Positions 699-56,845 of a DNA stretch of 64,000 nt are shown piece by piece (the stretch's first letter is position 1; each line of letters starts with the position of its first letter). The position numbers were made by a program, and so were the translations under genes. Origin of the DNA: a virus. The stretch is from positions 1 through 64,000 of IMG/VR virus record IMGVR_UViG_3300045988_126550. The stretch is one strand, 5' to 3'. Below the pieces are notes generated by a model that ran no database searches, was not told the DNA's origin, and saw only the letters and a program-made list of their open reading frames with translations.

Positions 699-1200
699 AT
701 TTGTTCCTCGTTACAGCTTTATTTAGAGAATTAGTTCTGGTAAGCTCAAATTTTAAAGTACGAGTGGAGTACGCAGTGTCCGTTACTCCCTCTTTGTTGT
801 ATATCAATTTTGCTTGCATACCGAACATATTAGACCATCCAAAAATATCACGAATTAAATACCCAAGTAAATCATGTCGCTCAATTCCATATGGAGTTTT
901 AATATCATCCGCATGACAAAACACAACAAATTGTACATATTGAATTTTCATGACACTATTATATTGATGGTCTTCTATGTCATCCACACTAAAGCATATA
1001 AAATTTCTTGCAACATCCTGCACCTCTGGCACTCGAATATATGCAAAGATATTTGTGTTTAAATAATCATCTGGGCTTGAAGGATCTAGTTCACGATTAT
1101 TTAACGCCTCAATAATATCTGGATCTGATGTAAGTTTTTGACGAATTAAACGTTTCATACTAGACACATCATCATCAATATTTTGAATATCTCTAATCAT
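688..1200 (-). CDS. hypothetical protein (virion-module neighbourhood)
   Basis: Track ORF 170 aa; start abuts the stop of the upstream ORF; no motif recognised. Confidence 0.6.
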   Translation of the reverse strand: MIRDIQNIDDDVSSMKRLIRQKLTSDPDIIEALNNRELDPSSPDDYLNTNIFAYIRVPEVQDVARNFICFSVDDIEDHQYNSVMKIQYVQFVVFCHADDIKTPYGIERHDLLGYLIRDIFGWSNMFGMQAKLIYNKEGVTDTAYSTRTLKFELTRTNSLNKAVTRNKYEF

Positions 1201-2483
1201 TAACTAATCACCTCCATAACCGTTTCTGTTGCGTACTTACCATCTTTGTTTGCGGCCGACACAACAATTTTTTTACCAACCATGCTATACAATTGTAAAC
1301 AACGTAATTTAAGAGCATTCCAATTATCTTCTGCTGGTGCAACATTAATTTTAAATATTTCTTCTCCATTGACACTACACGTAACATCACATGCATCAAC
1401 ATCCGATGGCGTAGAAACATCGTCTCTAAAACTTAAATCAGATAGCATGACATTAGAAGGGCAATCGTCAGATGGTTCAATTTCCCAATCATCATTATGA
1501 TAATGAAGATTAATAGAGCATAATAACTGGTTATCATTCATAAATGACAATTTCCATATTGGCTTATCTGCAACATATACTAAATTAAATGCATCCCAAA
1601 ACTCTGCCGTAAATACCTTAGAACTACCGCCAACACGCAATGTGGCATCTTTGCCATTATAAGTAATTCTCCCCGTCGGGGATTCTTCCTCTGGCATTTC
1701 AAGTCCGGCATCAATATAATGAGGCTCTTTTAATCTACAATATTGGCAAATTTCGTTTTTAGTAATGTCGTGCTCTTTATTCGTACACCAATTTGCTAAG
1801 CCATATTTCCCACAGTCTTCCTGCATTGTCGCTTGGACTTGTTTAAATGTCAAACGTGTAATACCAACCGGGATTGTATCTAATACCTTAGATAATTCCC
1901 ACGCTAAAGGTACCTTCCTTCCGCTATCATAAATCAATACACGTTGATTATAACTAAGCGTTTGCGTATATGGAGTTGTTGGTAATAGCATGATGGTTTG
2001 ATCTTCTGGCGTAGTAAAAATATAATCAGTCCAAAGACCAGAGTTATAAGAACTCTGCGTTCTCTGTACACACTCACACTTATAAACTTTATCTTCATGT
2101 ACCCATTTTAATGTCCAGTTACACTTTAATACATAATACATATGAAATTGTGGTTGATGATCATCAAGAATGACGAGCCATCTTTGTAATTCACCCGCAT
2201 CATCTGGGATATCAACATATGACCCAACAGGAATCTTAACATGAGGTCTAAATTGTAGCTTATATACTTCTTCGTCACCGCTTATTGAACGGCGCGTATC
2301 AATAATAAACTTAGCGTCTAGTTTTTTTAATTCAATTCCGTTTGGCACAGAAGTGACAAAAACCTCACGATATGCAGGGTCTCGCTTGAAGGTGGCGTTG
2401 ATCGTACTATCGGCATTGCGCAAATAAGCATCGCATTGACATTTCCCTAATCTTTCCATACGAGTTTTAAATGAATCAAGCAT
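1200..2483 (-). CDS. hypothetical protein, ~427 aa (virion-module neighbourhood)
   Basis: Track ORF 1200..2495. ATG 2483 preferred (GGTGA SD; ATGCTTGA overlap with the stop of 2476..2778). Confidence 0.6.
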   Translation of the reverse strand: MLDSFKTRMERLGKCQCDAYLRNADSTINATFKRDPAYREVFVTSVPNGIELKKLDAKFIIDTRRSISGDEEVYKLQFRPHVKIPVGSYVDIPDDAGELQRWLVILDDHQPQFHMYYVLKCNWTLKWVHEDKVYKCECVQRTQSSYNSGLWTDYIFTTPEDQTIMLLPTTPYTQTLSYNQRVLIYDSGRKVPLAWELSKVLDTIPVGITRLTFKQVQATMQEDCGKYGLANWCTNKEHDITKNEICQYCRLKEPHYIDAGLEMPEEESPTGRITYNGKDATLRVGGSSKVFTAEFWDAFNLVYVADKPIWKLSFMNDNQLLCSINLHYHNDDWEIEPSDDCPSNVMLSDLSFRDDVSTPSDVDACDVTCSVNGEEIFKINVAPAEDNWNALKLRCLQLYSMVGKKIVVSAANKDGKYATETVMEVIS

Positions 2484-2778
2484 TATCATCACCATCTTTC
2501 AAGGCATTAACTAAATTAGCCGCATCAAGTATAGCCTTGCGGAACTGAGAAGGATCCCTTCGTGCTGTCTCTAAACAACTAATAATAGTCAATATTTCTG
2601 GCTGATAATTAAACATTTTATTTAATCCACTTATTTGATTAATCAATGATTGCATATGGGCATCTAAAAAAGGGTATTCATTCTCTTTTTGATAAAGACA
2701 ACTAATAATTGCTCCATATAAATAACGTTTTTGCTCTATAATCTGCATTTGAGGGATATCTCCATAAATAGTATTCAT
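2476..2778 (-). CDS. hypothetical protein, 100 aa
   Basis: Track ORF 2476..2829. ATG 2778 preferred (GAGGGAGGA SD 7 nt upstream; removes the overlap with 2792..3211). Confidence 0.6.
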   Translation of the reverse strand: MNTIYGDIPQMQIIEQKRYLYGAIISCLYQKENEYPFLDAHMQSLINQISGLNKMFNYQPEILTIISCLETARRDPSQFRKAILDAANLVNALKDGDDNA

Positions 2779-2791
2779 AGTAATTCCTCCC

Positions 2792-3211
2792 TCAAGTCCA
2801 ATACGAACCATATCCATATGTATAATCACGGCTTAGCCTTTGCGCTTCTAACTTCATTTTTTCATCCAACGCTATTAATTCCGCAAGATGCTGAGACTGA
2901 GAATAATATTTCTGCTCTTTATCAGCAAAAACTTGCTTAGTCAATAAAACAGAATTAACTTGCGGCTCAAGCCACTGCCTCACAACTAAAATTGCAAGAA
3001 TTTCCTTCTCTACATCTAATAAATCTACGTTAAATTGCTTATTCTCTTCATCTCGATTAGAAAGGTCATTTTTGCATTTTCTAAATTGTGAAATAGCGCT
3101 CATAAGCCATCCATGGAACATATCTTCCAAATCTTCCTCTGGAAGTAATGCAAGATCTGGGTCTTCAATTTTAGAAGCAGCTCTTTCATAAATTTCAGAA
3201 AAAGGAGTCAT
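2792..3211 (-). CDS. hypothetical protein, 139 aa
   Basis: Track ORF; same strand, just downstream of the capsid gene block. Confidence 0.55.
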   Translation of the reverse strand: MTPFSEIYERAASKIEDPDLALLPEEDLEDMFHGWLMSAISQFRKCKNDLSNRDEENKQFNVDLLDVEKEILAILVVRQWLEPQVNSVLLTKQVFADKEQKYYSQSQHLAELIALDEKMKLEAQRLSRDYTYGYGSYWT

Positions 3212-3225
3212 TTAAATAACCCCCT

Positions 3226-3759
3226 TTACTCAATCATTAATTTTAACTCTGTGCCAAGAATTTCATCCAGTGCGTTAATCTTTGCAATACTATCTAAAGA
3301 ACCATTACGAATTTTATCCCCAGCAATATTCTTGATAGAATCTTTAAATCCAACAGGAATCTCACGGAGTCTTTTCTTAAACTGATTAATAGGTAGATTG
3401 AATAAATTATCGACATCTAGTGCAGCAACCTTTGCGTAAAGGGCCTTAAGTTCGGGCCACTGTTCAAGTAACTCTTCGTCCTCAATTACAAAATACGGGG
3501 CATTTAGATAAGCAGACCTAGTAGACCTAAGAGCTTGGAGATCTTGAAATTCTACCTCAGTAGCATCACCATAATCTGCCCATGTGTATAGTAATTGAGA
3601 CTTCTTGCCGGGTAATAGCAGTTCTCCGAACGTCACAGACTTGCACAAAATAACATCATCTTGCGCGAATTTACGAGGAGCCTTTTTCTTGGGTTCTTCC
3701 TTGATAATTTCTTCAGTAGGAGCCTCAGGCTCTACCTTCTTGGTTCTTGTATTTGCCAT
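3226..3759 (-). CDS. hypothetical protein, 177 aa, Lys/Glu-rich N-terminus
   Basis: Track ORF; AAAGGAGAA SD; preceded by motif copy 3786..3800. Confidence 0.6.
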   Translation of the reverse strand: MANTRTKKVEPEAPTEEIIKEEPKKKAPRKFAQDDVILCKSVTFGELLLPGKKSQLLYTWADYGDATEVEFQDLQALRSTRSAYLNAPYFVIEDEELLEQWPELKALYAKVAALDVDNLFNLPINQFKKRLREIPVGFKDSIKNIAGDKIRNGSLDSIAKINALDEILGTELKLMIE

Positions 3760-3785
3760 ATTAAATTTCTCCTTTTATCCTAATA

Positions 3786-3800
3786 ATTAATTTTGTATTG
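3786..3800 (-). promoter_or_regulatory. conserved intergenic motif copy (consensus CAATACAAAATTAAT)
   Basis: Gene-strand CAATACAAAATTAAT, 6 nt after the capsid exon-2 stop, upstream of 3226..3759. Confidence 0.7.
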
Positions 3801-3806
3801 TTTAAA

Positions 3807-3893
3807 TTACTTAACAATCTTCCACATACCAAACTTCTGGTTAGTGATAACACTAAGGCCCATCTTGGTCTGTACCTCGTAATCATATGTCAT
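3807..3893 (-). CDS. major capsid protein, exon 2 (28 codons + stop)
   Basis: Own translation MTYDYEVQTKMGLSVITNQKFGMWKIVK*, in frame with exon 1 once intron 3894..5022 is removed. Below the 60-aa track cutoff. Confidence 0.7.
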   Translation of the reverse strand: MTYDYEVQTKMGLSVITNQKFGMWKIVK

Positions 3894-3902
3894 CCGTTAT
3901 GT

Positions 3903-4595
3903 TTAACAATTTTTACTTTCAACTTTTATCCATGATAATGGTTCGCCTGTAATTGGATGTTTGCCAGCGTGTTTTAAATGCCCATTTGCGCAACTAGTAA
4001 CATGACTTCTAGAAATGCCATATTTATTTTCTACATCTTTTGCACCCCAAAATGATTCATGTAATTCTGGACAATACAAAGGGACTGTTGCTCTTGGATT
4101 ATTTTTACCATTTACGTCTGCATGATTTACTGACATCTTACTTTTTGTTTCTTCTGTTATAACTCTTTCGTGGTTTGCTTTTCCTATCTTTGCTCGATGT
4201 TCCTCAGTAAAAATTCTTCCTTTAAGAGCTTCGCTAATTTTTAATCTTGTTTGTTCTGACATTGTTTTAATATCACGCGAACCTCCCGGTTCAATATTGT
4301 AACCAAAATCTTCATTGTCGGATTTGTAAAATGATATATAATAACGTTCACGCTCATCCAAATGCGCAGCATCGCACTCTTCTATGATATTAAATGTAAA
4401 ATTTTCAATACCATATTTATTGACCGCAAATTGCAAATGTCTATTTTTATGCTTATTGTGTTTAAGTTTAGTTTTATGTCCATATAGCCTATCTTTTAAA
4501 TTAACAGATTGACCAATGTATTTCTTCCCATTTATAATATTTTCGATACAATAAATACCAATTCGCTTTTCCACATTATCACCACCTTTTATCAT
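3903..4595 (-). CDS. GIY-YIG homing endonuclease (I-TevI-like: GIY-YIG + NUMOD3-type repeats + IENR1-like HTH)
   Basis: GIYCIENIINGKKYIGQSVNLKDRLYGHK... motif string. Repeated ..T.E.R.KIS/G modules. GTG 4574 with a GGTGGTGA SD is an alternative start. Lies inside the intron. Confidence 0.85.
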   Translation of the reverse strand: MIKGGDNVEKRIGIYCIENIINGKKYIGQSVNLKDRLYGHKTKLKHNKHKNRHLQFAVNKYGIENFTFNIIEECDAAHLDERERYYISFYKSDNEDFGYNIEPGGSRDIKTMSEQTRLKISEALKGRIFTEEHRAKIGKANHERVITEETKSKMSVNHADVNGKNNPRATVPLYCPELHESFWGAKDVENKYGISRSHVTSCANGHLKHAGKHPITGEPLSWIKVESKNC

Positions 4596-4769
4596 AATAT
4601 TAAAGTTGAAAGTAAATATAGGGCGCTACCCCTTGTTGACCTTTCGATCCTCTATTTTTCAATAGAGCGCAGACTATATCTTCACCCTTGCGGGTGTGTA
4701 CCACTTCCACATATCAATCGCTTATATGTGTACTTCCTTTCGGAATAGTCGTTGAACCTTTTCCAGCAT

Positions 4770-4799
4770 ATATTATATATAATAATTTTGTATTGTCAA
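4770..4799 (-). promoter_or_regulatory. sigma-A-like promoter inside intron (TTGACA-N18-TAATAT), motif in spacer
   Basis: Gene strand TTGACAATACAAAATTATTATATATAATAT; upstream of the GIY-YIG ORF. Confidence 0.5.
4781..4795 (-). promoter_or_regulatory. conserved intergenic motif copy
   Basis: Gene-strand CAATACAAAATTATT, overlapping the -35/spacer of the intron-internal promoter. Confidence 0.6.
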
Positions 4800-5022
4800 T
4801 TAGCAAAACGTACAATAATATATGCTAAAACTTGGCTGCTGATTATCCATTCTTACAGTGTTTAGGGTTTAACCTTGCACTATCTTAATACTTTTTTCCA
4901 CTTTCGCAGCATTCACGCTTAGTATTTAAACTTACGTTGTAGCGTATTAAGCTTTAGGAGTTTCCAGCAATTCGATACATTATTTCTCATACTCATTTCT
5001 GAATACGTGGACTATGTTGTTA

Positions 5023-6024
5023 ATCCATATGAGTTCCAGCATCCTGAACCTGATACATTTGAGTGTCACCTTCATAAACTAGCTTGATGAAAGGCTCGAC
5101 ACCAACAGGCATAATAAACAGAATATCATTGGCAATTAGATACTGAGTGGTATCGTTAAGCTTAAAGCCGTTCTTGAGTTCCACAAGTCTAATTCCTTCC
5201 CAATAACCAAACTTACCAGTAGTGTACTTCTCATCCTTCATGCTACCAGAAGCCCATTCAACCTTAGTAAGATCAAACACACTAGCAAGAGCAGCGCGAG
5301 TACCCATAATAACGACTTCGGAATCAGATGCCATACCAACATCCATACATAGAGTACGTAGGGTTTCCTTGGTTGCATCACTTAGAGCAGAAGACTTATA
5401 CCACTGAGCGCCTAGAGTAGTACCAACACCCATTAGGGCCTCATATAGAGCCTGATTGACATAACGATCAAACGCTTCAGTAATCTTACCAACTAGAGTT
5501 GCGAAATCTTCAACACCAGTAAGTAGTCTTTCAAATTCTGCATAAACCTTAAGGCCATACCAGCTAGTCTCGACGCTAAAGGTCTTGCCAGCCCCTAGTC
5601 TCTGTCTAATAATATCGTGATGATTGCCAGAAACCTTCATAACAGAAAGAACACTCTGATCCGGGCAATAGAACTCGTTCTTATCGCCAAGTGCTAGATT
5701 ACGAATTTCGACGAACTCCTTGAAGAAAGGATTCTCCTGCCAGCCACTAACTAGAGCATCATCAATAACGACCTCAATCAGATCAAAAAGAACTGCCTGA
5801 TTTCTACGAATACCTCTACGAATTTCTGCCTTGGTGGACTTTTCGTCACAACCAATAACATTGCGGAAAATCTCAACAATCTTCTGATTTGCTTCCTTTA
5901 CGGAAATGCCATCTAGAGCATTGTGAGCATAGTCAAGCATTAGCTTATTAAAAGCATTATAGTCATTTTCATTATTGTCAAATACATTCTTAACATTCAT
6001 ATCAAACTGCATAAACTTAGCCAT
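5023..6024 (-). CDS. major capsid protein, exon 1 (334 codons)
   Basis: Track ORF 5020..6045. ATG 6024 preferred (AAAGGAGGAAA SD). Position after the portal and scaffold genes, and size, fit a capsid protein. The in-frame TAA 5022-5020 is the first triplet of the intron. Confidence 0.7.
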
Positions 6025-6053
6025 AATTATTTCCTCCTTTCTCAATTTTCAAA

Positions 6054-6581
6054 TTACGCGCCTAGACTTACGACATTGAGTCTGTAAGAAACGCTATTAG
6101 TGTGGTTAACCTTCTCAACGATCTGAAGAACAATGCCAGTCTTAGGAGCGGCGTTAGCTTCCTTATAAAGACCATTCTCAATCTCTACATAATTACCAAC
6201 AACGGGGGCAGTATCTAGAGCAGTAATAGCATTAGCAGAAACGGTGAAAATATCATCAACATATAGTTCATAAGCTCTTGCAACTTCACCAGTAGCATTA
6301 TAGAAATATCTTTCCTCTTGGTAAGAACGTCTATCGGAATTATATCCAATAGGAGGAGTGAGTACTAGGTAGGGCTTCTTACCAGCAGCATAATCTGCGG
6401 AATCAAAAACCTGTGCCTCAACCCATGCACCTCTAGTAACAATAGAACCATTGTCTAAATCCTTGTGGCACTTCATAGATAGAATATGACCAGCGCCGGT
6501 AGCCTTCAGTAGAGAACTTTCAGCAACAACGTGCTCAGTTCCGATAATTTTATCAAAAACATTTGCCATAACTAATTTCAT
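6054..6581 (-). CDS. hypothetical protein, 175 aa (capsid-associated by position; decoration or scaffold candidate)
   Basis: Track ORF, 8 nt upstream of the capsid gene. ATG 6569 (MANVF...) is an alternative start. Confidence 0.5.
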   Translation of the reverse strand: MKLVMANVFDKIIGTEHVVAESSLLKATGAGHILSMKCHKDLDNGSIVTRGAWVEAQVFDSADYAAGKKPYLVLTPPIGYNSDRRSYQEERYFYNATGEVARAYELYVDDIFTVSANAITALDTAPVVGNYVEIENGLYKEANAAPKTGIVLQIVEKVNHTNSVSYRLNVVSLGA

Positions 6582-6643
6582 CCTTTCATAATTTAAAATT
6601 GTTTTAATATAACAAAAGTCATTATTTACAACGACCTTAGTTT

Positions 6644-6658
6644 AATAATTTTGTATTA
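6644..6658 (-). promoter_or_regulatory. conserved intergenic motif copy
   Basis: Gene-strand TAATACAAAATTATT, directly after the stop of 6660..8381 and about 60 nt upstream of 6054..6581. Confidence 0.6.
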
Positions 6659-6659
6659 T

Positions 6660-8381
6660 TTAATCTTTCTTAAATAAATTACCATAAGCAGAAGCCTTTT
6701 TATCTTCCTTCTTACTAAAATTAAATCCAAGACTATGAGACTTCTTATCCTTCGCAGCAAACTGTGCCTTCTTTACACTAGCAGCGAATAGCAAATCACA
6801 CTTATTCTGAATCTCTTCGACAGAATACTTTTCGGAATCGTTCATAAGTGCCTTAAACTCATCAGATTCACGGATACTATCATATGCTTCATCTGCAAAA
6901 ATAGCATCTTTTGCGGCTTTCTGCTCTGCAGCATCATAATTATCCTTAAATGTCTTAAGCTCATTATATTTTTCTTCAAGTTCAGCATAATCACTACGCA
7001 GTTTTTCTACCGCAATCTTTTCAGATTCAGTCAATAGCATCTGGAACACTTCTGTACGCTCACCATCAAGAGATACATTTTCTCCATCAATAGCATAACC
7101 CTGTTTATAGAATTTCCCATTGCACCATCCCTGCATTATGAAGTAATTATCATAAACAGCATAAATTCCATACCATTCATTGTCTGCCTCTTCATATTCT
7201 CCAAGAAGATTATAAAGAGCATATCTGATATCCTCATGAGAAATTTCAATCTTAAAATTCTTTACAAAATTTTCACCCTTCTTCTTAGACTCGTCATCTT
7301 CAGTAGAAGCGCCTTCACCATCTTCTGGATCTTCATCTTCACTTGGCTCTGGTTCTGTTGGTTCTGGATCTGTAGGGTTTGTGCCTTCGCCATCGCCTTC
7401 ACTAGCGCTAGGATCTGTTTCTCCGGCGTCACCAGTATCAGAACCTGCATCGCCATCATCATCTGCATACTTCTTATTCTTAAATTCCTCAAAAGCTGCA
7501 TCTAACTGTTCATCCGACATGTTTTCATAATCAAAATCTAGCTCTTCTGCAGTAAAACCATACTTCTCTAGAAGTTCCTCAAAATGATTCATTTCTCTTC
7601 TCACTCCCTTCTCTGTATTGTTTTTATTGAAATTAGACAATGTGCTATCAAGCTTGTCTAATATTTCAACCAATTTTTCTTGATAATTAAATACAGGCTC
7701 CTTTTGACAGAAATCTGCAATATCAGCTCTTGCGCCAAGCATTCCTTCGCCTATTTCATTACCATGTTCATCACAGCCTAATAAAGTGCAACCACCGAAA
7801 TAAAAATCGGTCAAATCAAGATATTTCTCTTTGGCATTATAAGAAAGCTCATTGATAACCAATTCGCAGCTTACTTTTGTTCCATTCTTTCTACGAATGA
7901 TATTCGCAGCTTCAGTATATTCTTCAGGAATAACAGCATATGCATTAACATATGTCTTATCCTTTTCTTCATCATACTCAAGATAAGGATCTTCTGCCGT
8001 AAAACAACCAACTTGCTTTTCTGTATAAACTATCTTTTCATCACCATTTTCATCTTCTTCAATTTCCATATTGTGAGCATAAAAATCATATGTCCCATCA
8101 TCAAGTTGATGAATATATGCTAAGACAGGTCTATATTTTAAAGTAGGCATAGCGGTCTCCATATTTTCTTTAGAAATATGGCTCCCATTTCTATTGGTTT
8201 CGGTGTGACAAACTTTAAATTTTAATTTAAGCATCCCAGGCATATCATTATCAGATACTTCAAAATTTGCAGGAGTAGAAACAACAATCGGGTTGCCTTT
8301 TTCTTTTGAACTAAAATTAACAGACTTATTTTGTTCTACAAAGAACTGATATAAATTATCAAGCGTTAAAATTTTATGCAT
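6660..8381 (-). CDS. prohead protease/scaffold-like fusion candidate, 573 aa
   Basis: Lies between the portal and capsid genes. N-terminal ..NRNGSHISKENMETAMPTLKYRPVLAYIH resembles the start of HK97-type prohead proteases. Has an acidic low-complexity linker (PTDPEPTEPEPSEDEDPEDGEG) and a helical C-terminal half. AAAGGAGGAAA SD. Confidence 0.4.
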   Translation of the reverse strand: MHKILTLDNLYQFFVEQNKSVNFSSKEKGNPIVVSTPANFEVSDNDMPGMLKLKFKVCHTETNRNGSHISKENMETAMPTLKYRPVLAYIHQLDDGTYDFYAHNMEIEEDENGDEKIVYTEKQVGCFTAEDPYLEYDEEKDKTYVNAYAVIPEEYTEAANIIRRKNGTKVSCELVINELSYNAKEKYLDLTDFYFGGCTLLGCDEHGNEIGEGMLGARADIADFCQKEPVFNYQEKLVEILDKLDSTLSNFNKNNTEKGVRREMNHFEELLEKYGFTAEELDFDYENMSDEQLDAAFEEFKNKKYADDDGDAGSDTGDAGETDPSASEGDGEGTNPTDPEPTEPEPSEDEDPEDGEGASTEDDESKKKGENFVKNFKIEISHEDIRYALYNLLGEYEEADNEWYGIYAVYDNYFIMQGWCNGKFYKQGYAIDGENVSLDGERTEVFQMLLTESEKIAVEKLRSDYAELEEKYNELKTFKDNYDAAEQKAAKDAIFADEAYDSIRESDEFKALMNDSEKYSVEEIQNKCDLLFAASVKKAQFAAKDKKSHSLGFNFSKKEDKKASAYGNLFKKD

Positions 8382-8626: not shown

Positions 8627-8641
8627 ATTAATTTTGTATTA
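8627..8641 (-). promoter_or_regulatory. conserved intergenic motif copy (overlaps the last codons of the HNH gene)
   Basis: Gene-strand TAATACAAAATTAAT encodes ..I-Q-N-stop of 8628..9530 and is followed by AAAGGAGG. Confidence 0.65.
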
Positions 8642-9530
8642 TATGGGATTTATCTGGTTGTTCTGGATCATCAGCATAAAACCATCGAAATCCTCCTGCT
8701 GTTTTATAATTCTTTTTATGTTTACAACAACCAATAATTTGTGTATCATCTATCCCAGTTTCTCGTTTTATTTCTTTGGCACCATACCACGTTTTAATAA
8801 AAAGATCTCCATCATATTGATTAATGACTTTAGATAATTTACTTCTTTTCCCTGTTAAATGATTTTCTGGATTTTTATAACGTTCTTTTGCCTTATCTCT
8901 TAATATTTGACGAGATTCTTGAGAAAGATGTCTGCCATACATTGGGTTATTTTCTGGATTTTGATATCTCTCTTTTGTTCTCATACTTATTTTATTTTTT
9001 GTTTCTTGAGAATGATGCGTACCATACCTAGGATTATTTTCTCCTACATAATACATAGATTTATATTCATAAGCACATTCCGCTGAACAAAAAACACGAC
9101 GATTTCCATTTCTATTATATTTTTCATAATCATATGGAGTAACATTAATTTCTTCTCCACAATTAGTACAATTTGTAGTAATTCTGTTATACCAATAATT
9201 TTTTTCTCCAGAAATTGATTCAACAAAAGCAATCCTAGCTTCTTCATATTCGTCAGGTGTTAATTCATATAATTCTTGCTTGTCGCTTCCTTTTATGTGA
9301 CTCATCATCCACCATGCCGAAACCAACTTTTTATTATCTGGATTTTCCAATGCCAATAAACGATGAGCTTCAAAATGTTCTTTAGCATATAAATCAATTA
9401 GATTATTTTCATCATTTGTCCCACCGCAAGATTTTGGTAAAATATGATGTCGCTCATGATATTCATCACCACAAGCAAATCTTCCTCTACTATCAAGTAT
9501 GTTATTAATAAACTCTTCATATGTTTTCAT
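8628..9530 (-). CDS. HNH homing endonuclease with NUMOD3-type repeats and one IENR1-like HTH
   Basis: HERHHILPKSCGGTNDENNLIDLYAKEHFEAH (HNH). GENNPRYG / ENNPMYG repeats. C-terminal ..AGGFRWFY module. ATG 9530 preferred (AAGGGAGG SD) over the track start 9596. Confidence 0.85.
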   Translation of the reverse strand: MKTYEEFINNILDSRGRFACGDEYHERHHILPKSCGGTNDENNLIDLYAKEHFEAHRLLALENPDNKKLVSAWWMMSHIKGSDKQELYELTPDEYEEARIAFVESISGEKNYWYNRITTNCTNCGEEINVTPYDYEKYNRNGNRRVFCSAECAYEYKSMYYVGENNPRYGTHHSQETKNKISMRTKERYQNPENNPMYGRHLSQESRQILRDKAKERYKNPENHLTGKRSKLSKVINQYDGDLFIKTWYGAKEIKRETGIDDTQIIGCCKHKKNYKTAGGFRWFYADDPEQPDKSHIIQN

Positions 9531-9631
9531 AATATATCTGCCTCCCTTATAAGCATAAAGATAAAAGTGGTAAGAATATGATAAGGGCATATTCAACGGT
9601 TTGCAACCCGCTGTCCCACTTTTATAGCTAT

Positions 9632-9660
9632 ATTATAACACATTAATTTCGTATTGTCAA
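9632..9660 (-). promoter_or_regulatory. sigma-A-like promoter TTGACA-N17-TATAAT, motif in spacer
   Basis: Gene strand TTGACAATACGAAATTAATGTGTTATAAT; about 95-nt leader to the HNH start. Confidence 0.6.
9642..9656 (-). promoter_or_regulatory. conserved intergenic motif copy (variant)
   Basis: Gene-strand CAATACGAAATTAAT. Confidence 0.6.
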
Positions 9661-25898: not shown

Positions 25899-25932
25899 TT
25901 ATTATAACACATTTTTCCAGTTTGTCAATGGG

Positions 25933-39591: not shown

Positions 39592-39600
39592 ATTGACAAT

Positions 39601-39614
39601 AATACAAAATTAAT
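39601..39614 (+). promoter_or_regulatory. conserved intergenic motif copy (between TTGACA 39593 and TATAAT 39616)
   Basis: TTGACAATAATACAAAATTAATGTATAATGGAGG. Confidence 0.65.
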
Positions 39615-39633
39615 GTATAATGGAGGTACAATT

Positions 39634-46617: not shown

Positions 46618-46869
46618 ATGGGACAAATACTTGAGGCATTAAGAGAAACAAAAGATAAAAATGTAGACATCTATACAGAGCATAAACTCTTCGGCAAGCA
46701 ACATATTCAAATGAAGTTTATACCAGAAACAGAAGCGGGATGGGGGTTCCGTGCACGTGGACAAGCAATCTATATTAATAAAGATGATGTTGTTTCATAT
46801 GATATTAACAACAGAAAGGTGGAAATTAAGGGAAAAATGATGAGTATAAAAATCATTTTAAGGTCTTGA
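46618..46869 (+). CDS. hypothetical protein, 83 aa
   Basis: AAGGGGAG SD. Confidence 0.6.
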   Translation: MGQILEALRETKDKNVDIYTEHKLFGKQHIQMKFIPETEAGWGFRARGQAIYINKDDVVSYDINNRKVEIKGKMMSIKIILRS

Positions 46870-46893
46870 CAAATTGGAAATATGTGGTATAAT
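46866..46893 (+). promoter_or_regulatory. sigma-A-like promoter TTGACA-N16-TGgTATAAT (extended -10)
   Basis: Read directly. The -35 overlaps the stop of 46618..46869. Confidence 0.65.
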
Positions 46894-55282: not shown

Positions 55283-55310
55283 TTGACAAACCGAAAATCT
55301 ATGATATAAT
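55283..55310 (+). promoter_or_regulatory. sigma-A-like promoter TTGACA-N16-TATAAT
   Basis: Followed after 5 nt by TACAAAATTA. Confidence 0.65.
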
Positions 55311-55804: not shown

Positions 55805-56821
55805 ATGATTAATAAACTTAAGCAGATGCTATTAGAGAATCCAGAGAACATTGCCGCCCTCCTTTCCGCATATGATTTTGAGAAGATATCTATACGTAAT
55901 AATGAACTACGCTTTGCACATGATTCAGATGGTGGCGCAAATAATGTATCTATTCGTACAGACCAAGATAGAAATTCTTACTTAAATGTGGCAGATTATA
56001 GCCATGGTATTTATACGGATATATTTAGCTATATCATTCAAGAGCGTGGAGTGACGTTTAAGGATGTTCTGACAACAACTAAGAATATTTTAGGACTTGA
56101 TGAACATTGGACTGCGCCAAGTAAATGTAGACCTCTGTTCGGAGGAATTTACCAACGAATCATTAATAAAACTTCTCCAGAACCAAAGGTATATCCAGAA
56201 GAAATCTTGAAGCAGTATGTTCAAATTGGAAATGAACTTTGGCTTAAAGACGGAATAAGTCTTGAAGTGCAGAGAGAATTTGATGTGTGTTTTTCTCCAG
56301 AAGATAATGCAATAATTTTTCCATGGAGAGATGCAAAAGACGATATTATCGCAATTAAATCAAGATATAATGGTACGCCACCAGAAGGTATGAGCAAATA
56401 TTTTTATCCTGTAGGCGGCAATATATCAAGCAGCCTATATGGATATAGTCACAATTATCAATACTTATATGGTAATGATGTTGTAATTACAGAAGCGGAA
56501 AAGAGTTGCCTTCAAGGTTGTACATTTAAATACAGAAATATTGTTGCGATTGGTTCTAATAATCTGAGTGAAGCACAGGCGAAGTTAATATTGCAATTAC
56601 AACCAAAAAGAATTATTATGGCACTCGACGAAGGTTTGGAGTTTGAGCAAGTAAAAAAGAATTTAGACTTATTAAAATCACTTGCTACAATGAGGCAAGT
56701 GGAACTTTACTATTGGGATAGCACATTAGATTTGGACATTCCATCTAAAGCATCTCCTACGGATATGGGAGTAGAAAAATTCAATGAAATAATGCAGGAA
56801 CAGCTTGTAGAATATACTTGA
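55805..56821 (+). CDS. TOPRIM-domain primase-like protein
   Basis: VVITEAEKSCLQG (TOPRIM Glu) and IIMALDEGLE (acidic DxD-like); sits next to the helicase module. Confidence 0.5.
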   Translation: MINKLKQMLLENPENIAALLSAYDFEKISIRNNELRFAHDSDGGANNVSIRTDQDRNSYLNVADYSHGIYTDIFSYIIQERGVTFKDVLTTTKNILGLDEHWTAPSKCRPLFGGIYQRIINKTSPEPKVYPEEILKQYVQIGNELWLKDGISLEVQREFDVCFSPEDNAIIFPWRDAKDDIIAIKSRYNGTPPEGMSKYFYPVGGNISSSLYGYSHNYQYLYGNDVVITEAEKSCLQGCTFKYRNIVAIGSNNLSEAQAKLILQLQPKRIIMALDEGLEFEQVKKNLDLLKSLATMRQVELYYWDSTLDLDIPSKASPTDMGVEKFNEIMQEQLVEYT

Positions 56822-56845
56822 CAAACTAGTATTTTATGTTATAAT
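56818..56845 (+). promoter_or_regulatory. sigma-A-like promoter TTGACA-N16-TATAAT
   Basis: The -35 overlaps the stop of 55805..56821. Followed after 5 nt by TACAAAATTA. Confidence 0.65.

Follow-up and report, generated by a model that had tools for sequence, protein, structure and literature searches.

How does a phage encode a full-length capsid protein when the reading frame of the capsid gene stops short of its conserved end and resumes 1,129 nucleotides (nt) further on? The question is raised by a virus sequence, IMG/VR record IMGVR_UViG_3300045988_126550, of which positions 1 to 64,000 (the 64-kb stretch referred to below as the window) were analysed. All coordinates are those of the window, and the capsid gene, the intron and the open reading frame (ORF) within it all lie on the minus strand. 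An earlier note on this DNA had proposed that the major capsid gene is split by a group I intron which hides a 28-codon second exon. In our analysis, a mobile self-splicing group I intron of subgroup IA, equipped with a GIY-YIG endonuclease, very probably interrupts a YonB-family major capsid gene after codon 334; self-splicing and mobility are what we infer from the sequence. The host gene is an essential late phage gene. The locus comprises three parts:

5023..6024, minus strand: capsid exon 1, starting with ATG at 6024, 334 codons, the last of them CAT ATG GAT; taken from the ORF listing.
3894..5022, minus strand: group I intron, 1,129 nt, from an in-frame UAA stop to the terminal G3894; defined by intron-less alignments and by Rfam family RF00028.
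3807..3893, minus strand: capsid exon 2, 28 codons and a stop, reading MTYDYEVQTKMGLSVITNQKFGMWKIVK up to the stop codon.

Exon 1, with a Shine-Dalgarno sequence (GAAAGGAGG) 5' of its start codon ATG 6024, corresponds in the alignment to nt 1-1002 of uninterrupted capsid genes. Its last sense codon, GAT (5025-5023), is directly followed by the TAA stop (5022-5020); both this stop and the 28-codon frame at 3893-3807, as read in the earlier note, were borne out by the ORF listing. The boundaries of the insert could be fixed by comparison with the intron-less contigs L001-L006, which share 95-98% nucleotide identity with window positions 7500..5023 and 3893..2500. The two aligned pieces adjoin in the intron-less loci (at 5002/5003), gap-free on their side, so the insert spans exactly 5022..3894 (1,129 nt), and, since the bases at its two ends differ, the junction cannot slide. 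The splice sites proposed earlier are base-exact against the intron-less alleles, and both the terminal G3894 and the frame-keeping GAU/AUG junction were confirmed in the sequence.

The predicted product supports the split gene. Joining exon 1 (6024-5023) to exon 2 (3893-3807) preserves the reading frame (GAT/ATG) and gives a protein of 362 residues, which was used as a query. Its top match, P0001, is a protein of 362 amino acids (aa), 100% identical over 100% of the predicted spliced protein, which was found in at least 24 contigs and is encoded by an uninterrupted gene in all of L001-L006. The claim of a split capsid gene with a hidden exon holds. The exons are predicted to be spliced as CAGGATGCTGGAACTCATATGGAT to ATGACATATGATTACGAGGTACAG, with the junction peptide THMDMTYDYEVQTK; in the intron-less allele L016 the corresponding sequence reads CATATGGAT followed by ATGACATATG.

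The part of the protein encoded by exon 2 is well conserved. Intact capsid homologues are 361-363 aa long, and in their alignment the exon 2-encoded columns T336, K344, G346, G356 and W358 are invariant and many others nearly so; all of the same-site intron carriers examined have an intact, in-frame exon 2. Among the best 120 homologue clusters, to which the tally was limited, 31 have a length of 334 aa and 12 a length of 281 aa, and in both cases the truncation falls exactly at an intron site.

The insert itself is recognised as a group I intron by the Rfam covariance model, a scan proposed in the earlier note. RF00028 matches 5032..4650 on the minus strand with 68.9 bits (curated gathering score, 50 bits), E = 2.2e-15, over model positions 1-253 of 253. 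No other Rfam family was matched across the 64-kb window even at E <= 0.1, and no further introns were found. The core can be laid out as follows:

5027-5021 with 5014-5008, minus strand: P1, formed by exon UGGAU and intron UA with UAGUCCA, with U5023.G5012 at the cleavage site.
5006-5000 with 4995-4989, minus strand: P2, GAAA loop.
4979-4973 with 4703-4697, minus strand: P3.
4969-4964 with 4842-4837, minus strand: P4, the P/Q pairing.
4959-4855, minus strand: P5, branched extension.
4835-4757, minus strand: P6, with a 70-nt insert.
4750-4745 with 4677-4672, minus strand: P7, the R/S pairing.
4744-4742 with 4737-4735, minus strand: P7.1, GAAA loop.
4730-4724 with 4714-4708, minus strand: P7.2.
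4696-4683, minus strand: P8, GCAA loop.
4667-4650, minus strand: P9.
4649-4638, minus strand: P9.1.
4633-4620, minus strand: P9.2.
4620..5006, minus strand: ribozyme core P2-P9.2 as a whole, from helix coordinates and covariation.

The elements named earlier, P (4972-4959), Q (4844-4835), R (4757-4745) and S (4682-4672), lie where they had been placed and are each unique in the window. The GCAA tetraloop hairpin expected between R and S was found at 4696-4683 (CACCC-GCAA-GGGTG), and the pairing of exon UGGAU (5027-5023) with GUCCA (5012-5008), including the wobble U5023.G5012 at the junction, could likewise be confirmed. The presence of both P7.1 and P7.2 between P7 and the 3' strand of P3 is the hallmark of subgroup IA in the Michel-Westhof classification, the usual type in phages, and by these two helices the intron can be assigned to that subgroup.

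The fold was examined further in an alignment of 19 related intron cores, in which pairs were counted on the proposed structure. Standard pairs occupy 89.7% of the cells, compared with 36-44% when the partners are slid by 1-3 columns, and changes on both sides of a pair (compensatory changes) were observed in 49 of 88 pairs. The covariation score of 0.411 (at most 0.118 for the slid pairings) was reached in none of 500 shuffles. Compensatory changes occur in P2, P3, P5a, P5c, P7.2 (all 7 pairs), P8, P9 and P9.2; P4 and most of P7 never vary and are therefore uninformative in this respect. All 18 distinct related introns have the U.G pair at the 5' splice site. That the core has been kept with compensatory changes implies selection on the RNA fold. 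A consensus scan had marked a terminator-like hairpin at 4620-4632 on the minus strand (GGGGTAGCGCCCT, then a T-rich run). This hairpin is helix P9.2; given the compensatory changes found in it throughout the family, a role in the ribozyme is more likely than one in termination.

By the helix coordinates, the ORF follows the complete catalytic core on its 3' side, and the remainder of the intron is made up of the following elements:

4599..4619, minus strand: 5' strand of a closing helix, an inverted repeat of 21 nt, 90% complementary.
3903..4574, minus strand: homing endonuclease ORF, starting with GTG 4574, 223 aa; GIY-YIG domain, NUMOD3 repeats and a C-terminal NUMOD-like module.
3909..3929, minus strand: 3' strand of the closing helix, overlapping the last endonuclease codons (KVESKN).
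3894..3908, minus strand: 3' tail of 15 nt, ending GUUAAACAUAACG, the last base being G3894.

The long-range helix of 4619-4599 with 3929-3909, which was absent from the earlier note, encloses the endonuclease ORF. All ORF-bearing relatives in which it was read have kept it, with sequences that differ but remain complementary. A tail of 15-19 nt (UUAAACAnAAnGG) follows at the intron sites 413, 839 and 1002 of the capsid gene and, in a looser form, at sites 473 and 820; in three ORF-less introns (359, 374 and 393 nt) P9.2 runs straight into the 3' tail. Exactly this cassette is what the ORF-less introns lack, so the endonuclease lies in a discrete, hairpin-closed cassette. An extension of the closing helix to hide the ribosome-binding site of the endonuclease is suggested in the window (z = -2.7) but is not conserved, the values in sister introns ranging from z = -2.0 to +1.2.

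The GIY-YIG endonuclease reported in the earlier note was found again by Pfam, with GIY-YIG (PF01541) at 39.2 bits (threshold 22.6; E = 8.9e-10) and NUMOD3 at 32.2 bits (threshold 20.4), and a PHROG search placed the enzyme in homing endonuclease families. The ORF listing extends the gene to ATG 4595; GTG 4574 is the most likely start, because a Shine-Dalgarno sequence (AAAGGTGGTGA) lies 5' of it and the orthologues in L007 and L025 are 223 aa long. The N-terminal 90 residues align to the catalytic domain of I-TevI (1MK0, E = 6.6e-5), with the motif positions GIY, YIG, Arg, Glu (ERERYY) and GYNI kept. Over its C-terminal 78 aa, the window enzyme shares 45% identity with the module of the HNH enzyme encoded in the site-839 intron. 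This module, ending in a motif of the KH(A/T)GKHP(I/V)T-E-L(S/T)W type (KHAGKHPITGEPLSW in the window enzyme), is common to the enzymes of all sister introns, which are of the GIY-YIG type at sites 413, 473 and 1002 and of the HNH type at sites 820 and 839. In L040 (2097-2981), the site-413 GIY-YIG ORF loses the C-terminal KHAGKHPITGEPL(T)W motif by a frameshift, which suggests an endonuclease in decay within an intron that is otherwise intact.

The earlier note had also pointed to a promoter-like element in a peripheral loop, and a perfect match is indeed present:

4772..4799, minus strand: TTGACA-16-TATAAT, a promoter-like site upstream of the endonuclease ORF, situated in the loop of P6; 12 of 12 positions matching.

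Perfect TTGACA-N16-18-TATAAT sites number seven in the window, where 0.21 would be expected by chance:

4772-4799, 9632-9660 and 25901-25928, minus strand: perfect promoter-like sites.
39593-39621, 46866-46893, 55283-55310 and 56818-56845, plus strand: perfect promoter-like sites.

TG stands one base before the -10 hexamer in five of the seven, and two intergenic sites (9660..9632 and 39593..39621) share the start TTGACAATA and an AAATTA spacer motif. These sites suggest that the phage may rely on the primary sigma factor of its host for a set of transcripts. A perfect site occupies the same P6 loop in 11 of the 19 related introns, with differing spacers, while two others have one or two mismatches (two in L017) and six lack the site, having short P6 loops (two ORF-less introns and L007, L009 and L025 among them). 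The retention of both hexamers despite the changed spacer argues for a function of this promoter-like site.

The capsid gene of relatives is interrupted at other sites as well. A scan of IMG/VR, with exon mapping and boundary refinement, gave 44 loci, of which 12 carry no intron in this gene, 28 carry one and four carry two. The introns lie after gene nt 413, 473, 820, 839 or 1002, the last being the site occupied in the window. At about 78% nucleotide identity, L007-L010 have an intron at this same site, with a 223-aa GIY-YIG ORF, and L011-L014 have one at a second site. Every sampled contig with a truncated gene gave an RF00028 match at the break (60-98 bits), and none was obtained in the four intact-gene loci scanned (L001, L004, L015 and L018). 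The guide sequence follows the exon from site to site: the exon/guide pairs are UGGAU/GUCCA (1002), GACU/GGUC (839), CGGAU/GUUCG (820) and GACAU/GUGUC (413), and site 473 has two exon variants with matching guides (GGGAU/GUUCC and GCGGU/GCUGC). A supposed sixth site, 475, was rejected: it is site 473, where the exon has diverged and the guide matches it. Their sequences show the introns at the five sites to be a single RNA family whose guides have been retargeted. Sites 820 and 839 are only 19 nt apart and are occupied by related introns with related HNH enzymes (L031, 3821-4982; L011, 4840-6111).

Four intron states coexist in a single lineage, defined by at least 95% nucleotide identity to the window across the flanking genes. 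Within it, L001-L006, L015 and L016 are intron-less; L017 carries the window's intron at site 1002 (96.7% identical, with no break); L027 has the site-839 intron and L033 the site-473 intron. The 12 bases on either side of the junction are nearly invariant in all alleles, as would be the case for a homing site placed in a conserved region of an essential gene. This pattern of presence and absence would be best explained by homing. In several carriers, the exon near the junction diverges from the nearest intron-less allele, with alignment gaps, which may reflect co-conversion or changes of the target site.

The identity of the interrupted gene as that of the major capsid protein is supported by family membership, by about 30% identity to annotated capsids and by the synteny of the head module. 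Precomputed matches assign the protein to Pfam PF27364 (YonB); a Pfam search with the exon 1 protein returned no match. The adjoining genes carry YonD_N, YomW and YomU_Tube, as in an SPbeta-type head-tail module. The closest GenBank relatives, with 27-30% identity and E values down to 4e-42, are proteins of Bacillus siphoviruses of about 165 kb (FADO, Tsamsa, PBC2 and Thrax); many of these homologues are annotated as "major capsid protein", and one homologue cluster is named "capsid protein". A comparison of the protein with PDB sequences gave only noise.

Taken together, these data are consistent with the following course of events. In the late capsid pre-mRNA, the exon end UGGAU would pair with the guide GUCCA, leaving the U.G wobble at the cleavage site, and the core P3-P9 would fold around the guanosine-binding P7. 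A long-range helix of 15-21 bp (4619-4599 with 3929-3909) would loop out the 690-nt endonuclease region and so return the 3' tail with G3894 to the core, and two transesterifications would then join GAU to AUG, giving the 362-residue capsid protein. The UAA which opens the intron would halt ribosomes at the edge of the ribozyme. The looped-out ORF is predicted to encode an I-TevI-like GIY-YIG/NUMOD endonuclease, and a sigma-A-type promoter of its own in the P6 loop would probably drive its transcription. During mixed infection, this enzyme might cut intron-less capsid alleles near the insertion site, the intron being copied in by repair.

Several observations weigh against parts of this reading. 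The capsid assignment comes from family and annotation, and the AlphaFold2 model is poor (pLDDT, the predicted local distance difference test, 55; pTM, the predicted template modelling score, 0.50; shallow alignment). The top 14 PDB matches obtained with this model by Foldseek all come from phage capsids or from a related virus-like particle, and these matches to capsids of the HK97 fold are weak (E >= 3e-3, template modelling score about 0.3). The P10 pairing of CAU with the AUG of exon 2, suggested earlier, is possible, but at site 1002 it comprises only 3 bp, with a one-base offset from P1, and is not kept in L007 (2 bp); across the insertion sites its length is 2-5 bp. Finally, the same-site introns of L007, L009 and L025 bear an ORF without the promoter-like site in P6, which is therefore not required for keeping the endonuclease. 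According to a rival reading, the intron splices but is no longer mobile, the endonuclease being inactive or having another role, with vertical inheritance and a patchy distribution produced by repeated precise loss. The frameshifted C-terminus of the L040 endonuclease, the existence of ORF-less introns in the family and the two mismatches in the P6 promoter-like site of L017, the closest carrier, all speak for such immobility. The ORF in the window, however, is full length (approximately that of its orthologues) and retains the GIY, YIG, Arg, Glu and Asn positions, and four states within a lineage of at least 95% identity are more easily produced by gain through homing than by multiple base-exact deletions. 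We consider an immobile intron improbable.

Still less credit can be given to the idea that no splicing takes place, and that the gene is truly split or truncated, yielding a 334-aa protein and a separate 28-aa peptide, or belongs to a defective phage. Exon 2 does happen to start with an ATG, but no Shine-Dalgarno sequence precedes it (aaacataacgg/ATG), and across the family its residues vary little or not at all. The ribozyme core has been conserved through compensatory changes, and the same arrangement recurs on many contigs of 150-166 kb from independent samples; the idea is highly improbable. The insert might also be an assembly chimera or an element of another kind (an intein, a group II intron or a free-standing endonuclease cassette), given that the window is probably a metagenomic assembly and that there are free-standing endonuclease genes nearby (9596..8628). 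Against a chimera stands the independent contig L017, in which the same 1,129-nt insert is found unbroken at 96.7% identity, and against another element the RF00028 match over the full model (1-253). An intein is excluded by the opening UAA and further stops in the capsid frame, and a group II intron by the lack of any such Rfam family match at E <= 0.1 and by an ORF that is GIY-YIG and not reverse transcriptase. This last group of explanations has next to no probability, and a mobile, self-splicing group I intron is the reading that we retain.

The introns of phage T4 offer a close comparison. The td (I-TevI) and nrdD/sunY (I-TevII) introns resemble that of the window in having a subgroup IA core with P7.1 and P7.2, in interrupting a protein-coding phage gene and in having a stop codon at or near the intron start; in addition, the GIY-YIG domain of I-TevI (1MK0) can be aligned to the window's enzyme. 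In sunY, as here, the catalytic core is located entirely 5' of the ORF, and the T4 intron ORF has its own promoter. There are also clear differences: (i) the T4 host genes serve nucleotide metabolism, whereas the host gene in the window encodes a virion structural protein, (ii) the td ORF lies in P6a, whereas here the ORF is placed between P9.2 and the 3' tail, in a cassette closed by a hairpin, and (iii) the promoter-like site of the window has the sigma-70/sigma-A consensus of the host, while those of T4 are of the middle or late type.

Group I introns in major capsid genes have been described in siphovirus-type phages, namely the lactococcal Tuc2009 and the mycobacteriophage LittleE (PMC3706429). 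In LittleE, the intron was identified with the help of intron-less related genomes, and splicing was proven by reverse transcription PCR and protein sequencing (PMC3706429). As in the window, exon 1 of these genes ends in U and the intron in G, and the LittleE intron has a putative homing endonuclease, which, unlike that of the window, is LAGLIDADG-like and encoded on the opposite strand. The capsid families concerned are unrelated to that of the window, whose case is known from sequence alone. Among crAss-like phages of the Delta and Zeta groups, the capsid gene is divided into up to five fragments, and in the Zeta group it is split by several group I introns (PMC7886860); Jug phages have on average about 18.5 group I introns per genome (PMC12880540). 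These are, like the phage studied here, uncultivated gut-type phages in which essential genes are broken by group I introns with endonucleases, to the confusion of ORF annotation. The window phage differs from them in its SPbeta/Tsamsa-like head module, in belonging to a lineage with contigs of 150-170 kb and in having a single intron in the window.

Among GenBank phages, the closest cores belong to introns that lack annotation, in Enterocloster phages CB457P1/P2 and CB473P1-3, in Staphylococcus Kayvirus and in Clostridium c-st/D-1873 phages; they share 75-79% identity over 35-68% of the window core. The Enterocloster intron is followed by an "intron-associated endonuclease 1", which is I-TevI-like and 31% identical to the window's enzyme; its host gene is a different one, having no similarity to the capsid protein of the window. 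Megablast against GenBank phages found only a 33-nt match in the conserved R region (Lak phages and one Enterococcus phage), and the phage is without a close sequenced relative among them.

Some further features of the genome deserve mention. Long ORFs at 1-31400, which includes the structural module, lie nearly all on the minus strand, and those at 32000-64000 on the plus strand; no tRNA genes were found in the window. Between two head-module genes, a free-standing gene (8628..9596, minus strand) encodes a 322-aa HNH/NUMOD3/zinc-finger endonuclease and is preceded by a perfect TTGACA-17-TATAAT (9660..9632, minus strand). Related contigs have in this slot a GIY-YIG gene, a DUF723-type gene or nothing; free-standing endonucleases apparently have a hotspot here. 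In relatives, the 427-aa gene that lies downstream of the capsid module contains another group I intron (L007, 7962-8080; L035, 5721-6031), followed in L007 by a LAGLIDADG ORF; the window copy of this gene (2495..1200, 431 aa) is uninterrupted.

The practical consequence concerns annotation. ORF callers give a capsid fragment of 334 aa (or 341 aa), which misses the conserved 28-residue C-terminus, while the correct length is 362, and many public relatives bear the same truncated call. The principle is not new, for capsid-gene group I introns and multi-intron capsid genes have already been described. What the analysis adds is the corrected 362-aa capsid protein together with an intron lineage which, with retargeted guides and a conserved ORF cassette, would occupy five sites of one gene. 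An intron endonuclease of phage PhiPA3 has been reported to act against a rival phage (PMC11620839). It is tempting, if rather doubtful when all of its parts are taken jointly, to suppose that a single intron lineage has colonised five sites in the 1.1-kb capsid gene by rewriting its guides and by swapping GIY-YIG and HNH heads on a shared C-terminal module, always with the same promoter-equipped cassette, and that these introns are weapons between co-infecting strains of one gut phage species. If this were true, they would cut the capsid gene of a rival and would be more than passengers. For the spread of group I introns in an uncultivated phage, the locus provides a natural series: genomes of at least 95% identity have no intron, a single intron, of which there are four alternatives, or two introns, and the series includes ORF-bearing and ORF-less versions, retargeted guides and two types of nuclease on one DNA-binding module.

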